Below are positions 2,733 to 23,967 of a stretch of DNA of 44,225 bases, piece after piece; position 1 is the stretch's first letter, and each line of letters starts with the position of its first letter. The notes under the pieces were generated by a model. That model made no database searches and was not told the origin of the DNA. It worked only from the letters and a program-made list of their open reading frames with translations. The position numbers and the translations under genes are program-made. This DNA comes from Ionaspis alba (Eukaryota), in NCBI GenBank assembly GCA_964255285.1, contig CAXUUL010000055.1, forward strand, positions 1 to 44,225. The letters are read 5' to 3'.

Positions 2733-4678
2733 ATGGATAACAATACGATGGCATTGATCCCATGGCATAGCCATTTCCATCCTTCTATTATTCCTGAACC
2801 ATTGCCTTTGTATATCGACCATTCCAATCAGGCGCTTCGAGTCTGGCTTGTTTCGGGTCTTTGTAGCTGGGCTTCTGCAGGTGTTCTGACAATCTTATCA
2901 TCGTTCATGGTCACATATCTTGTCACTTTGCTGCGGTGGAATCTTGCACTCCAAGATGACGACACATCAAAGAAGCCACCCATGGTACCTTACTGGATTC
3001 CACTGCTTGGACATGCAATTTCGTTCCTTTGGGATACTGCGGAACTAGCTACATCGATTGTGTAAGTTGAATCCCCAGGCTATTACAGTCCAGCTACTCG
3101 GTGACAAGACTGACATAGTATTTACCAGCGATCGATTTGGGACTTCCGTCCCTGTTCGTCTACGATTGTTCAATGCGGAGCTGTATTTGATCTCGGGAAC
3201 TCAAAATCTCAAACAGGTCTGGAGGAAGTCGCAGTACCTTTCGTCCAAAGTCCAAGTCCTGATTGGCGTTGGTACATTGTTTGGCACGCCAAAGGAAGCT
3301 CTTGATTTCTATGAGGCTGATGACTCCGGAAACAACCACCTGCCCCACCCCGACAGCAATATTCACCCAGAGAACCGCATCCATCACCTCACGCATAAAA
3401 CAACAATCGAACTCCTCGCCGGCAAGCACTTACATTCGCTAGCCAAATCCTTCCAGACCTTGTTTGAGAAACGCGTTTGCAATCTTGAAGTAGGATCTGG
3501 CTGGACTGATATGCCAGATCTTCTGGATTTGCTACAGTCCAACATGTTTTCTGCAGCTGTTGAGGCGATGTGCGGGCCATACCTGCTAGCGGCCAGCCCT
3601 GACTTTGTCCGAGATTTCTGGGCCTTTGACAGCTATACGCCATGGATAATCAAGGGCTATCCCAGGATCTTGAAGCCTACTGCATGGCGAGCGAGAGATA
3701 GATGTCTCGAGGATGTGAAAAGATGGCACACATATGTCAAACAGCACGATACCACCACAGTTGTGGATACAGAGAGTGCTCAGGATCCTTTCTATGGAAC
3801 TGGTCTGATGAGAGCAAGGCAGAGTTACAGCTCAAAGATGAAGCCAATGAATGCCGATGCAGTCAGCAGCGCTGATCTCGGGCTGATCTGGGCGTAAGTT
3901 CTCCTCCGCTCGATTTTCGCACGTGTGGGACTTGGCTAACTTCGACAACAGAACAAATTCTAATACCATTCCGGCTGCTTTCTGGATGCTGGCCAACGTG
4001 GTTCAAGATCCATCTCTTCTTTCCCGAGTTCGCAGCGAGCTTTCCAGCTGTCTTTCTCCTTCATCCCCATCGGACTCCTTGGACTTCGACCTAGCCAGAC
4101 TATGCGATCGACCACTGCTACAATCCATCTACGCGGAGGTTCTCCGTCTCTACACATCTGTCATGATCGTCCGGAGCACAGAATATACAGACGTCACTAT
4201 CGGGAACTGGACCTTCCCCAAAGATAGCATGATCGCAATTTCGAGCCAGATGGCACATATGGACAAGGAAGTCTGGAGCACAGGGTACGAAGCGCGTCAC
4301 CCATTACAAGAATTCTGGGCCGAGAGGTTCCTGGTCTTCAAGCATGACCCAAGTAGCGGACCATCCAACAAACGACCCCAAGATAGCCAGCCTTATCCGG
4401 CCAGCAGGGATGCCGGGGAGGCTAAATTCTCTCTCAGCGGCGTTACAGGCTCATGGATTCCTTATGGTGGTGGCTCGAAGATGTGCCCGGGAAGGCACTT
4501 CGCCAAGCAGGAGATCTTGCTCACGTTCGCCATTCTGTGCAGCGCCTTTGATATAGAGCTGCGCACAAATGCCAAGTCAGGACCCCAGCCAGATATGAGA
4601 TTTTATGGATTGGGAACACTGCCACCTCGGGCAAAGACTCCCTTCCGCATTAGAAGGAGAACAGGGATACTTGTATGA
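2733..4678 (+). CDS. Cytochrome P450 monooxygenase, CYP7/CYP8-like, about 606 aa
   Basis: Exons 2733-3061, 3129-3893 and 3952-4678 (GTAAGT...CAG introns) join in frame. The protein has an N-terminal TM anchor, PPMVPYWIPLLGH, I-helix WATNSNTIPAAFW, EXXR motif (EVLR) and heme motif PYGGGSKMCPGRHFA. Confidence 0.95.
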
Positions 4679-17857: not shown

Positions 17858-19538
17858 ATGAAGCAGCCAGAGGACGTTAAATCTCGCGTCTTTCTTGGAG
17901 CAATTGACGCGGGAACTACTTCGTCAAGATTCTTGATATTCGACAGATCAGGAACGCCTGTGGCGAGTCATCAGATTGAGCTCACAAATCAGCATGCGCA
18001 TCCTGGGTCAGTGGCAGAGATATAGTGGCTGGAGAGCGTACTCCACTAATCTGACTTGCAGATGGCATGAGCATGATCCGCAAGAGCTTGTGGACTCGGT
18101 CCAGACCTGCATCACCAAAGCCACGGATTCATTCGTGGAGTCGGGCAATTCGATCACCGACATCAAAGCCATCGGCATCACTAACCAACGGGAAACGACA
18201 CTGGTATGGGACAGTGAGACCGGAGAGCCTCTTCACAAGGCTATCGTCTGGCCAGACACAAGGACGCAACCTATAGTCCGTGAACTGAAAGCACGTAAAG
18301 GAGCTGACAAGCTGCAAAACATCTGTGGACTTCCACTGTCGACATATCCATCATCTGTGAAGTTGCTGTGGTTGCTTCGAAACTGTGAGAAGACTAAAGA
18401 AGCCTATGAAAAAGGACGACTAGCATTTGGGACTGTTGATACATGGCTCTTGTTCAAGTTCAATGGGGGCAGAGATCGAGATGTATTTGTTACAGATGCC
18501 ACCAACGCATCAAGAACTATGTTCGTCAACTTACGCACTCTAGAATATGATCAACAGATGTTAGACTTCTTTTGTTTGGACACGAAAAAGATCAAGCTCC
18601 CTCAAATTGTCCCTTCTTCTGATGCGAATGCTTTTGGATCAATGGCCTCTGGTTCCCTGAAGGGGATCAAGATCACAGGATGCCTTGGAGACCAGTCGGC
18701 TGCTCTAGTCGGCCAGTGTGCATTCTCTCCTGGCCAAGCTAAGAATACCTACGGCACTGGTTGCTTCCTGCTTTACAACGTTGGCGAGAAGCCCGTGATA
18801 TCAAACCATGGCTTGCTGGCGACCGTTGCATACCACTTTGGAGGAAAACGAAAACCGGTATATGCTTTAGAAGGCAGCATAGCAGTGGCGGGAAGTGCTA
18901 TCCAATTTCTCAAAAACAATTTTGGTTTCTTTGAGTCTTCTCACCAGATCAGTGACTTGGCTTCGACCGTCAAAGACAATGGTGGATGTGTATTTGTTAC
19001 CGCTTTCAGCGGTCTGTTTGCTCCGTACTGGATCGATGACGCCAAGGGCACACTCTTTGGTATCACACAGCATACGCAGAAGGGCCACATAGCAAGAGCA
19101 ACACTTGAAGCGACGTGTTTTCAGACCAAGGCAATCCTCGACGCCATGGAGAAAGACAGCAAGCATAAATTGACAGAGCTCGCTGTGGATGGAGGCATGA
19201 GCAACTCTGATCTCTGCATGCAGGTGTGTATGATCTCCTCCTCTTAAACTCTTTGTTCTCAACCACTTCAGACCCAAGCAGATATAATAGGGATACCCGT
19301 CGACCGACCCGCGATGCGTGAAACAACTGCTCTGGGTGCCGCCATCGCCGCTGGATTTGCCGTGGACGTGTGGGAGGAGTTCGAGGAACTAAAGGAGGTC
19401 AATCAATCAGGCCGCACCATGTTCAAACCAAGTTTATCCAAAGCACAGAGTGCATCGTTGTATAAGAGGTGGGAAAGAGCTGTAGATATGTCCCGAGGAT
19501 GGGTGGATGCCAACGAAGGTGACGATAGTAATGCATAG
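17858..19538 (+). CDS. GUT1: Glycerol kinase (FGGY family), about 525 aa
   Basis: Exons 17858-18006, 18062-19223 and 19272-19538. Motifs: GAIDAGTTSSRF, GITNQRETT, GDQSAALVGQ, KNTYGTGCF, YALEGSIA, FSGLFAPYW, VDGG, ETTALGAA. Confidence 0.96.
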
Positions 19539-21031
19539 AGGCACGGATAAGATTCAGCAAATCGGTCTTACTCCCTTTGTATTTGTACCCGTACTATAGT
19601 CAATACCCCGATCGGATTTCTTTCGGCTTGCGCAGCGATGCTTCAAACTCGATTCACGCTGCTTTGCACGCCCCCTAAGCTCTGCTCGTACTGTTGTGGA
19701 CCTTTGGGTCATACATATTGTATACCAGGAGCTGGATTTGTTCTTTGAGTCAGCCATTTATGCCTCATTGGGAAGAGAAGACGCCAGTACTGGGCCACTT
19801 TGCACACCAGTTCAGGGGATTCAAATAACAGACTAAAGCCCTTCCAAAACCAGCGCGGAAGGCCCGCGAAACTGCTCCTTCGCAGCCTGCCTCATCCACG
19901 TGGCGATAACGTGGTTCTCCCATGCAACAAGATGAGGCCGAGCAGTAAGACTGCCATGGCTAGAGGCTGATAGGGTTACGTCTGATAGGCCTCATCATTG
20001 GAAGCCGAGGGACGGAACCCTATTCCAAAACAGCCCGCCGGGACTACGCCTAAAAGCTATACATCGCCCTTGTCAGGAATCTATCCCAGAACCTTGGCCT
20101 GGGATACAAGTCGGACCGGTGATCGTAGGATCGAACGCAAGCTAACCCGGCATTGATTGGCTTATGGCTCAACCGTCCACCATATGCCGCATGGTTGACC
20201 CACTCATACCCCGTCTCTGCTACCTTAGACATGACCACACGAATGTTCACGGTGAAATGGCTCCTATTCATTGGCCATGGCAGAATGAGAGGACAAGCAT
20301 GATGATGGAGGCTGCTCTCGTGATCTATGGAGGTTCTTAACGATGGTCTCGACCGCGATCCTACAGTCACAACATCGTCATCCCAACCAACTACTCGAAG
20401 GATTCAGCAATTTGTTTGCCACTTATAGACTCAAATGTGTCCCTTTGAAAGCGAGATATCAGCACCAGATCTGACTGCCGTTATTAACTTGGTCTTCAGC
20501 TTCAAACAGGCGGGGATTATTTTGCCTCAACGGAGCTGAAAAACTACTTCGCCAGGGTCTGGTGCCATGAACCAGGACAGTCTGAAGTCCGAAACAAGAG
20601 CCGGTCCTCTTTCCTATAATGGTCTATGATGATAGCTCCGTTGATCGACATGAGCCTCTCAACCTCGACATGGCCTGCCACTCGGCATGGATAGACAGAC
20701 CCCCTCGTCCTTGCGGACGGCTATCCCGTCGCTGGACCTTGTCACCTCAAAGCTTCTTGCCCTCCCATCGCATGATTTGTGCTTGTACTGGCTGTGAGAG
20801 CACACCAGTACTGACCAATTACGCTCACGGACGCAGTCAGCAATCAAACTCTCGATGACAATTCACAGATGGGCGTAACCTCGCCCCCTCTACCCCACGC
20901 TCTGCCCCTCTATTACTCTGCTTTTACTCCCCACCACATCCATTGTTCGTTCTAGATAAGATCTCCAGACATGTGACTCTTTCCCCACATATATCTCATT
21001 CTTTCTCCTCCTTTCCACGGCACATCGCATC

Positions 21032-21445
21032 ATGTGTGACTATACCCAAGTGACATACCAGTGCGGGCATGTTCGCTATCTGGTTAAGGCCTGGTGCACC
21101 CGATACCAGCAAACTCAGCAGAGGTGTCCTCCGAATGTGGTAGCTTGGTAAGACCCTCTCACGTCGCGAGACTCCTCAGTCCCGCGATTTCCAGGACGAT
21201 TCACTAACTCATTCCTGGGCAGGGAGACAAACAATTCTGAAAAATGCGGTATGCCTCCATATACTTCGAATATTTATAGGTCCAAGCATCGAACTTCTAC
21301 TCGTTCATATCCGTACAATTTTACAACGAGAGATGTGGTCAGATTCCATCCAAGAAGCTAACGTGTAATAGGAAGTTGCAAAACCACGCCTCCCGTCGCC
21401 TCTTCGTCCTCCACATCCTCATCAACTTCCTCTAAAAAACCTTGA
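21032..21445 (+). CDS. Three-exon micro-gene encoding a 71-aa Cys/His-rich, putatively zinc-binding protein (not in the ORF track)
   Basis: Exons 21032-21147, 21223-21248 and 21372-21445. Introns read GTAAGA..CACTAAC..CAG and GTATGC..GCTAAC..TAG. The 216 nt translate to MCDYTQVTYQCGHVRYLVKAWCTRYQQTQQRCPPNVVAWETNNSEKCGSCKTTPPVASSSSTSSSTSSKKP*. A CT-rich leader precedes the ATG. Confidence 0.85.
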
Positions 21446-21929
21446 AAAGATAACCACCTACATCGACAAAAAGCATCTTTCACCCCCATCAACACGCAAT
21501 CACCAAGTTACCGAAGCTCAATACCATCGCCGAACACCCACACACAGTCTGCCAACACCCCCGTGATCATTTTCGCCATGGCCTCCAGACACCACGCAAG
21601 CCAGCAAAAATCTTGGGGGGCCCCGGAAGTAGAAGGCGCGAATGGAATTCCCGGAGAAAGTGGTGTAGGTGAGTAATCATTAGTTTCTCCCCAGACCCCA
21701 CTCAATACGAGTACTGAGATACGAGCTTACGCACATGGGTCCCAAGATCAGAGTGGCAACTTTGCCAAGCTCTCCTTTTGCAGAAATTTAGGAGGTTGTT
21801 GATTCGTCGACTTTCCGAGGGCGGTAGCTGACGGACGAGCATATGAAAGAGGGAGGTTGGAAATACCTCTTAATTCGACTGTCTCGATCGGAGATTTCGG
21901 TGAGTCACTAAGGAGGCAAACTGGCCTAT

Positions 21930-22139
21930 GGGCTGGCTTCGCATATTTCATGGCAGGCAGTAGGATATCGAATAGAGATGATTTNNNNNNNNNNNNNNNN
22001 NNNNNNNNNNNNNNNNNNNNNNNNNNNNNNNNNNNNNNNNNNNNNNNNNNNNNNNNNNNNNNNNNNNNNNNNNNNNNNNNNNNNGGGCTGGCTTCGCATA
22101 TTTCATGGCAGGCAGTAGGATATCGAATAGAGATGATTT
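21930..22139. other. Scaffold gap (N 21985-22084) with identical 55-nt flanks; assembly overlap artefact
   Basis: 21930-21984 is identical to 22085-22139. Confidence 0.9.
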
Positions 22140-22689
22140 GTTTATATTTACATCTGAAATATTGTGTCACCTAATCACGACTCTAGTCCTATAGTCTTTA
22201 CTAGAAATGTATGAGCACATTTAATATTGTCCTGACTCATATTAAAATCGTCAACGTGGTATAGCCACCGAGTCCACACCTATCTACCGAGGGCTTCCCT
22301 ACAGCTGAAGATTCTATCCTCCGCGATGGCCGAGCTTGTGGCACCACGTGCTATCTCCGGCTTTTTAACCCGAGCTGCTGGTATTGTAGCCAGACGAGGA
22401 ACAGCAGATGCTCTCTTGAGGGTCCGGACATTTTCATTCACTCTCACTGACGTTGACATGAGACTAGGAGCTTGCTGACTCTCACTTGGAAGGTAGTGGC
22501 ATGCTGTTCCAACGGCGCGAAGCTCAAGGAGCCCAAGTTCAGTTGCCGATGGTAGGACGCGTATAGACATGGCTGCTACCTTGCTGGTAACCTTGATATG
22601 AATAATGCCAAGGATTAAACTGCTTGTTCGCTTTGCGAGACGTCTCGTAAGACCTCGTTTTAGGATCGCTGACCTTGGATTCTTAAACC

Positions 22690-23967
22690 CTACCCAAGGC
22701 CAACCTTCAACCCTTCCATCCTCCTGGTCAGTGTCGGACTGTTCTCTTCCTCTTCCACACCGACCTGAATCTCCATCTTCGGCCGATTCTTGTTCAGACC
22801 TTCGAGGAGCATGCATGCTTTGCAGACCGCCTGGCTAGACAAATAGCTGCATCGAACGCACTGCCCCATTTGCTGTTTTGGCAGCTTCTTTGCTTTCTTG
22901 CCTTTGCTGAACTTGTCGTTACCTTTTATTCTGTCATGTCTTTGGCCACTGAGACTAGACGTCATGTCCACCTCCCTCCCCTGAGCGGCTTCCCCGGCCA
23001 TAAGCTCCCTCTCCATAGCTGCCATCTCTCCTCCAGTCGTCCTCCCATTCGCGCTCCCACAGCCGCCAGCGTCATTCTCCTCTCCCTCTACAACCAGCAC
23101 GTCTTTGCCCACCACGACGGGTCCGTTCCCACTAATCTCGGCCGGCACCAATCTCGCCATATCCTCCCCACTCCTCACAATATCCAAAATCGCACTCGGT
23201 CTCACCCTCTCCAAATTCTTTACCAGCGTCCTCGCACTTCCCCTAAAAGCCTCAGGACTGTAGATACACTCCGTCGTGAAGTAATCCAGACTCTTGTGAT
23301 GCGCATAAAGAACAATCTCCTTCTCATACGCGTACTTGAGCGGCTTACTCCGCTTGATCTCACTCGCCGCACTGGCCGTAACAATACTAGCGGCCCTTGC
23401 GAGTCGTGGCAAATCTCCTCGCAGCAAATTCATCAGCACCGTCTCCGCGATATCGTCCGCGTTGTGTCCTGTCACCACGTGCTTGATACCCAGGCGTGCG
23501 GCGCCCCGGTCTAGAGCTTGTCGTCGAAAGACTCCGCAGTAGGTGCAGTTGCCCTTCTTGCCGATTTGCTCCACCACTTGGTCCATTGTCCAGCCGTAGA
23601 GCTCGTCGTAACCAACGATCTGCAGAGGCATGTCATATTGTACTGCGTTCCTTTTCACGGTTTCCAGACTGTCGTCTCTGTATCCCTTGATTCCTTCATC
23701 GATCGACAATAGCACCAGATCGAGACCATAGTCGTGGCGCTCGTTGAGGGTTTTGAGGACCGAGGCTAGGACGGTGGAGTCTTTGCCTCCTGAGGCGCCG
23801 ATGGCGATTCTTTCCCCTCTTGTGAAAAGCTGGGCGCTGGTAATGGTGTTGTGGATTTCGGTCTCGAAGGTGCTGATGAAGCAGTCTTTGCACAGTTTTT
23901 GGTGGTTTTTGGGTCGGATGATGAGCGCACGGTTCGTGGTGCAGAGTGCGCAGAGTGTTGGAGGCAT
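22690..23967 (-). CDS. NCS6: Cytoplasmic tRNA 2-thiolation protein 1 (Ncs6/Ctu1), 425 aa, intronless
   Basis: N-terminal CxxC...CxxC, PP-loop [49 protein letters not shown], and C-terminal CxxC...CKAC. Confidence 0.96.

Follow-up and report, generated by a model that had tools for sequence, protein, structure and literature searches.

The 44,225-nt stretch of DNA analyzed here (hereafter, the window) contains a micro-gene at positions 21032-21445 that, as read from its sequence, is predicted to be an intact, expressed-type, three-exon protein-coding gene with the junctions given below. We are nearly certain that this gene is real and that it is correctly modelled. Its predicted product belongs to an undescribed family in filamentous ascomycetes. 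The explanation that best accounts for the evidence overall, and which we hold with good confidence, is that this is a three-exon gene of a new family that would specify a small metal-binding (likely zinc) domain acting in the cell.

Gene model in the window

The ATG of the micro-gene is at position 21032 on the plus strand, and the gene is divided as follows.

21032..21147, plus strand: exon 1, 116 nt; codons 1-38 and two bases of codon 39; encodes C2, C11, H13, C22, and C32
21148..21222, plus strand: intron 1, 75 nt, phase 2; donor GTAAGA at 21148, CTAAC at 21204-21208, acceptor CAG at 21220-21222
21223..21248, plus strand: exon 2 (micro-exon), 26 nt; last base of codon 39, codons 40-47, and first base of codon 48; encodes E40 and C47
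21249..21371, plus strand: intron 2, 123 nt, phase 1, in codon 48; donor GTATGC at 21249, CTAAC at 21358-21362, acceptor TAG at 21369-21371
21372..21445, plus strand: exon 3, 74 nt including TGA at 21443-21445; encodes C50 and a Ser/Thr-rich tail

The joined coding sequence comprises 216 nt that specify 71 residues and a stop codon, and the product carries C2, C11, H13, C22, C32, C47, and C50 as well as W21, Y25, and E40. Since intron 2 sits in phase 1 within codon 48, between the two cysteines, the C47-x2-C50 pair is assembled by splicing. The original prediction described a three-exon micro-gene for a 71-aa protein, and each coordinate and signal that it named is present in the sequence, including canonical donors, CTAAC branch points, YAG acceptors, and phases that join exactly. 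The CxxC pair that it described as being built across intron 2 is likewise present in the window and is conserved in relatives. Read-through of intron 1 meets a stop directly after codon 39, and skipping of exon 2 breaks the frame. No longer open reading frame was found at the micro-gene locus on either strand, and no Rfam family matched within positions 19500-22700.

When scored on a family HMM trained on 12 spliced sequences, with the window excluded, the spliced tail of the window gene gained 21.1 bits as compared to 10.9 bits for the best of 10 downstream shuffles. Exon 2 of the window is the most divergent of the set, with this gain being set against at least 25 bits in 76 related loci. 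Position 49 of the window product is Ser, which is found in only one of 48 distinct proteins (Asp is found in 45), while position 39 is Trp and position 29 is Gln.

Homologs, exon structure, and selection

Absence of homologs with conserved Cys/His spacing had been named in the original prediction as grounds for abandoning it; such homologs exist in number. A search of 1.84 billion representative proteins with the 38 residues of exon 1 alone (P0001) returned 233 protein clusters at E ≤ 1e-3, of which 73 reached E ≤ 1e-10 and the best E = 5.6e-18; at least one weak match, the repetitive P0121, looks spurious. Many of the exon 1 matches are prokaryote-style open reading frame calls on fungal contigs. 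Among the 150 matches listed, at least 23 stop one residue past the match because a phase-2 GTAAGT or GTGAGT donor creates a stop codon, and other matches run on into unrelated intron translation. In properly spliced members, the match is followed by another conserved segment, E-[YF]-R-L-[ND]-E-x-C-G-[D]-C-[KR], which corresponds to exon 2 and the start of exon 3 of the window.

A profile search recovered 77 proteins, and all of the named ones are annotated as ‘hypothetical’ or ‘uncharacterized’. These include BELL_0036g00150 (Botrytis elliptica), SPSK_09825 (Sporothrix schenckii), CMQ_4856 (Grosmannia clavigera), B5807_09690 (Epicoccum nigrum), and VTN02DRAFT_5641 (Thermoascus thermophilus). 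Source genera include Sporothrix, Grosmannia, Niveomyces, Mycothermus, Achaetomium, and Cercophora; Hyaloscypha, Botrytis, Monilinia, Lachnellula, and Drepanopeziza; Polychaeton, Epicoccum, Delphinella, Aureobasidium, Boeremia, and Amniculicola; and Thermoascus and Thermomyces. Botrytis cinerea has a family member. We take the named sources to span four classes of filamentous ascomycetes, namely the Eurotiomycetes, Dothideomycetes, Leotiomycetes, and Sordariomycetes. The ESM Atlas returned only Ascomycota ‘hypothetical protein’ clusters (scores of 0.88-0.90) and no usable named cluster. The statement in the original prediction that similar short hypothetical proteins occur in filamentous ascomycetes agrees with where the relatives are found and with how all of the named ones are labeled.

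The contiguous core is present in 21 of the 37 NCBI-named models, and the remaining 16 are mis-spliced, through intron retention, an early stop, or a run-on. That gene callers miss or garble such genes, as had been anticipated, is evident from these 16 models. No literature on the gene or family was found in searches by N-terminal motif, by the locus tags of relatives, or by fungal microprotein and small-ORF topics, and the passages of PMC5640933 consulted do not mention the micro-gene. The window gene is a new member of an unnamed family that is represented in databases only by hypothetical proteins. Gene callers systematically drop or distort micro-genes of fungi when the exons are very short, and the exon pattern described here offers annotators a template with which to recover the gene in other genomes.

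To describe the exon structure of relatives, metagenome contigs were scanned, which yielded 224 stretches confirmed by tblastn, and 80 loci were kept. Exon 1 forms one continuous 38-codon block in all 80 of these loci. For each locus, all GT..AG models 3' of exon 1 were enumerated and ten downstream shuffles were made. A spliced model with the conserved tail, E-[YF]-R-L-D-E-x-C-G-D-C, was identified in 78 of the 80 loci; the other two (L069 and L073) are cut short. The tail gained 25.0-31.6 bits on the HMM in 76 loci and 15.3 bits in two others (L028 and L029), with the top shuffle gain at any locus being 15.1 bits (ten shuffles per locus).

Both introns are placed exactly as in the window (after coding nucleotides 116 and 142, bounding a 26-nt exon 2) in 47 of the 78 loci, which encode 26 distinct proteins. 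Considered separately, intron 1 follows coding nucleotide 116 (phase 2) in 58 of the 78 locus models, is displaced by 9 nt in 17 loci, and is absent from three transcript-like contigs, while intron 2 follows coding nucleotide 142 (phase 1) in 56 of the 78. Nine loci combine an intron 1 slid by 9 nt with an intron 2 placed as in the window, nine have no intron 2 in the first 56 codons, three are fully intron-less, and in the other 10 the second intron lies past the core and is uncertain. A YTRAY motif lies 5-50 nt from the acceptor in 129 of 143 modelled introns. From these sequence comparisons, the three-exon model is the predicted ancestral structure of a widespread family.

Three contigs of 1.1-1.4 kb (L017, L018, and L019) carry the coding sequence without either intron, in an open frame of 82 residues. 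Their exon 1 is 84% identical to that of the window, and a near-identical form of the same gene (L021) contains both introns. Positions 1-223 of L019 align to positions 697-919 of L021 (98.2% identity), positions 223-249 align to 1014-1040 (100% identity), and positions 248-1137 align to 1102-1998 (92% identity); the middle match is the 26-nt exon 2, allowing for overlapping junction bases. L017 and L018 show the same pattern against L021. The three contigs start within ~13 nt of one another, ~100 nt 5' of the ATG, while L021 extends 800 nt further upstream. From their shape, rather than from any record, we infer that the three contigs are assembled transcripts. The original prediction would have been undermined by a lack of spliced reads; for this close relative of the window gene, contigs exist from which exactly the two L021 introns are missing.

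Three further observations were made on these and other relatives. First, L017-L019 continue for ~800-1100 nt past the stop of the 82-codon frame, with no further intron removed relative to L021 and with no downstream open reading frame that is conserved in other lineages, which points to a long 3' untranslated region or to overlap with another transcript. Second, exon 2 of L028 (positions 3474-3510) and the matching site of L029 contain a run of five A where the close relative L027 leads one to expect four. The resulting +1 frameshift removes C47, and a normal intron and an exon 3 encoding G-D-C-K still follow; this is either a pseudogene or a homopolymer error in two assemblies. Third, the ORF-style translations of eight homologs (P0101, P0131, P0138, P0148, P0030, P0079, P0118, and P0120) contain 15-30 unrelated residues inserted after W21-C22; in some lineages, exon 1 thus appears to be split by an additional intron directly past the W21-C22 codons.

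Selection was evaluated on 49 distinct core coding sequences of 156 nt each. Median pN was 0.193 and median pS was 0.909, and synonymous sites are therefore saturated; among the 42 unsaturated pairs, dN/dS had a median of 0.024 and a maximum of 0.167. Variability at the first, second, and third codon positions was 0.16, 0.11, and 0.48, respectively, and codons 39-52 alone gave a pN of 0.24 and a pS of 0.98. The tail models were picked by a protein HMM, which favors conserved peptides, whereas the third-position pattern is a property of the DNA itself. In blastn comparisons of the window to the nearest loci, exon 1 alone aligned (74-79% identity) and the introns and flanks did not. Purifying selection on the core is strong.

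These data bear on two explanations that do not invoke the three-exon gene. The first is that there is no gene, and that the open frame arose by chance or the conservation is that of a non-coding element. The excess of third-position variation over that at positions 1 and 2 argues against this, as do hundreds of protein-level homologs, the conserved intron positions, and the lack of an Rfam match, and we regard it as having almost no chance of being correct. The second is that only exon 1 is used, with intron 1 retained to yield a 39-residue peptide, or that the window copy is a decaying pseudogene. The stop that immediately follows codon 39 upon read-through of intron 1, the divergence of exon 2 in the window, and the +1 frameshift in exon 2 of L028 and L029 are all in keeping with this explanation. 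However, the frame, donors, branch points, and acceptors of the window gene are intact and C47 and C50 have been kept, purifying selection acts on codons 39-52 throughout the family, and the transcript-like contigs of a relative are fully spliced. We consider use of exon 1 alone or decay of the window copy to be highly improbable, and a three-exon gene remains our preferred reading.

Conserved core and putative metal binding

Among 28 clean sequences, C2, C11, C22, C32, C47, and C50 are invariant, and M1, H13, W21, Y25, and E40 are present in at least 90% (alignment A4). The core pattern can be written as M-C-x8-C-x-H-x8-C-x9-C-x14-C-x2-C, with W21, Y25, and E40 also fixed. The Cys and His residues that had been listed as potential ligands from the window alone coincide exactly with the invariant or near-invariant columns. 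When the 48 distinct locus proteins are considered, position 13 is His in 47 and Asp in one, and position 29 is divided between His (25 proteins), Gln (22, among them the group to which the window belongs), and Lys (one).

Named relatives are mostly 52-95 residues in length and the predicted locus proteins mostly 52-82, with tails that vary from 0 to ~30 residues beyond residue 52. The tail is considered dispensable because eight loci, which encode three distinct predicted proteins, yield products that stop at residue 52. Of the Ser-rich tail noted in the original prediction, its presence in the window holds, but these three proteins indicate that it is not a conserved feature of the family.

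The structure was predicted with AlphaFold2, using the open frame of L019 and alignment A4. Residues 1-52 were folded with a pLDDT above 90, and mean pLDDT in 10-residue blocks was 91-95 over residues 1-50, with strands at residues 2-9, 14-20, and 34-42, helices at residues 23-28 and 48-51, and a disordered tail; four of the models scored 72-78 overall and one only 48. The functional unit is predicted to be the first ~52 residues, modelled as a compact module of a beta-hairpin, a short helix, a strand, and a CxxC-capped helix. Prediction of a homodimer with four Zn gave a score of 0.31 relative to a mark of 0.32, which counts neither for nor against such an assembly.

Searches for similar structures or domains returned no significant matches. 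A profile of A4 had no match in the PDB by sequence at E ≤ 10, Foldseek against the PDB gave nothing significant (best E = 0.43, TM ≤ 0.34), and VIA-align against 48,161 chains gave five at Z ≥ 2 (best Z of 2.6), none of them significant. Pfam gave nothing at or near threshold for exon 1 alone or for the surrounding 63-codon open frame, nothing for 10 spliced relatives, and only scattered sub-cut-off matches for the 28 clean members, with no family in more than two of them. The fold searches, being without a significant match, give no positive structural support for a zinc site.

We propose that the six invariant cysteines and H13 would hold this small domain together by binding metal, most likely zinc. 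Metal binding is inferred because the N-terminus is polar and has no signal-peptide-like stretch, because the small, beta-rich fold leaves no room for a hydrophobic core, because the CxxC caps the start of a helix, as in zinc knuckles, and because the only replacement of H13 among the loci is Asp. With regard to the N-terminus, direct reading of the sequence shows the first 13 residues to be polar, with two conserved cysteines and no hydrophobic stretch of the signal-peptide type, and the invariant M1-C2 pair means that the N-terminus of the protein is fixed. Guided by strand order, two sites might be guessed: one formed by C11, H13, C47, and C50, and another formed by C2, C22, and C32 together with H29 where it is present. 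Only seven candidate ligands are conserved. The protein would be intracellular and would serve as a small module for binding or as an adaptor, and not as an enzyme. From sequence and model together, we somewhat favor the prediction that the core is a zinc-stabilised domain, and our confidence in any specific cellular role is low.

Two other explanations accept the gene and assign a different chemistry to its cysteines. In one, the six cysteines form disulfides, and the product would be either an oxidised mini-protein located in the mitochondrial intermembrane space or a peptide secreted by an unconventional route. Six invariant cysteines are an even number that fits three disulfides, the single Cx9C spacing (C22-C32) resembles that of Mia40 substrates, and the conserved metal ligands number seven and not eight. 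Conversely, the N-terminus is polar and has no signal-peptide-like stretch on direct reading, the predicted fold is mainly beta rather than the helix-turn-helix of twin-Cx9C proteins, and the conservation of H13, with replacement only by Asp, fits a metal ligand better than a disulfide scaffold. We judge disulfide bonding to be unlikely.

In the other, the Cys6His set is the site of an iron-sulfur cluster or of some other metal with redox activity, and the protein would be a sensor or carrier. A site made up of several Cys and a single His could ligate a 2Fe-2S or 4Fe-4S cluster, and the level of constraint (dN/dS of 0.024) exceeds what many purely structural zinc knuckles would need. However, no iron-sulfur family was matched in Pfam or in the PDB by sequence, and the spacing of the cysteines is not known from any iron-sulfur motif. 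This we rate as less probable still than disulfide bonding, and a metal-stabilized domain, most likely containing zinc, continues to be the reading that we prefer.

One of the 80 loci (L023, positions 360-1056, with exon 3 from position 611) has an exon 3 that extends in frame by ~145 residues and includes a Myb-like DNA-binding domain (PF00249; 47.7 bits, cut-off of 24.4). It is also the sole locus in which Asp replaces H13. L023 may be a genuine fusion, and so a hint of a nuclear role, or an assembly chimera. A second candidate Myb-like fusion, in the tail of P0055/L058, was rejected, with the Myb match scoring only 12.2 bits (E = 0.2).

Genomic neighborhood and comparison with known domains

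Two genes recognized by Pfam matches flank the micro-gene in the window.

17937..19535, plus strand: FGGY-family carbohydrate kinase gene, upstream of the micro-gene; Pfam FGGY_N 170.5 bits, FGGY_C 134.1 bits
22693-24024, minus strand: PP-loop ATPase gene with a C-terminal zinc ribbon; ATP_bind_3 66.5 bits, zn-ribbon_14 60.3 bits

The span given for the kinase gene covers the two open frames that were examined, and its true start is further upstream. On our own reading, the product is presumably glycerol-kinase-like, and that of the PP-loop gene is presumably a tRNA 2-thiolation protein.

An FGGY gene is found upstream and on the same strand in 28 of the 38 related loci whose upstream sequence extends for 3 kb or more and in 13 of 17 distinct exon 1 types. 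It lies 1.3-3 kb upstream of the micro-gene across exon 1 types that differ by up to ~30% (L001-L016, L027, L032-L034, L038, L043, L048-L050, L052, L065, L068, L070, and L073). Types that resemble named Dothideomycete members are among those with the adjacency, and a group that resembles Leotiomycete members is without it. Microsynteny this old is unusual for filamentous ascomycetes. The kinase adjacency is old, and it is not by itself proof of a functional tie. Among the related loci, no other gene is shared across lineages between the kinase gene and the micro-gene, none is shared downstream of the micro-gene, and the PP-loop gene adjoins the micro-gene in none of the 80. The best upstream 8-mer occurs in 9 of 33 non-redundant 400-nt upstream regions, with a shuffle maximum of 6; this signal is weak and probably reflects shared ancestry.

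Between the micro-gene and the PP-loop gene, the window contains a run of 100 N (21985-22084) that is flanked by identical 55-nt stretches (21930-21984 and 22085-22139). This is probably a scaffold gap with unmerged overlapping edges, such that the true sequence is continuous and contains one copy.

A broader hypothesis, which we put forward tentatively and consider possible rather than probable, is that the ~52-residue core would be an undescribed metal-binding fold specific to filamentous ascomycetes, little changed since the classes diverged and often missing or mis-modelled because of the 26-nt micro-exon. The kinase adjacency might then point to a glycerol or osmotic tie, or the Myb fusion of L023 might point to a nuclear, chromatin- or DNA-directed role. 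The family unites extreme constraint, a four-class range, and a confident predicted fold without a neighbor, with no Pfam model and no literature found. Its 52-residue domain is a clean and cheap target for expression, metal assay, and structure determination. If it is a true new zinc fold with a conserved role, it would fill a blank in the core proteome of filamentous ascomycetes.

Several known Cys-rich families were considered as possible homes for the core and rejected. The Gal4-type Zn2Cys6 binuclear cluster has the spacing C-x2-C-x6-C-x5-12-C-x2-C-x6-8-C; the spacing in the window differs, and there is no Pfam match to PF00172 among the 28 members. Twin Cx9C (CHCH) substrates of Mia40 have two Cx9C motifs on an antiparallel pair of helices, whereas the window has one Cx9C (C22-C32) and one Cx8C, with three strands and two short helices predicted. 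The LITAF-like zinc ribbon (PF10601) gave the best whole-domain Pfam alignment, with residues 4-53 aligned to positions 16-65 of the 70-position model. Its score was 14.8 bits (E = 0.031) relative to a cut-off of 23.8, in two of the 28 members, and the N-terminal CxxC and hydrophobic membrane-dipping stretch of that family are absent from the window.

The zf-CHCC (NDUFS6-type) zinc finger has the spacing C-x8-H-x14-C-x2-C, and the C22-x9-C32-x14-C47-x2-C50 arrangement of the window is nearly the same. The window differs in having Cys and not His as the second ligand and in a first gap that is longer by one residue. The Pfam model was absent from all 28 members even at E ≤ 10; membership was rejected, and the resemblance in spacing is a lead only.

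The highest-ranked Foldseek matches, all non-significant, were to the Zn(Cys)4 domain at the C-terminus of Fur/PerR and to ribosomal protein L32. Like small zinc-ribbon and treble-clef Zn(Cys)4 modules, the core is predicted to have a beta-hairpin and a CxxC at the start of a short helix, and, as in those modules, the domain is too small for a hydrophobic core. It differs from them in having one CxxC, with the other candidate ligands being single residues spread over 32 positions. On the basis of the model, the family looks like a variant of a small Cys-rich metal-binding domain, with a predicted fold that has no neighbor among solved structures. Relative to the window, Sordariomycete members carry an extra P-x-W-E-x-M-I motif past the CxxC, which the window lacks. 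The named relatives share with the window the M-C start, the spacing of six cysteines and one His, W21, Y25, and E40, and the ~52-residue core, and, where their DNA exists, the positions of the introns.
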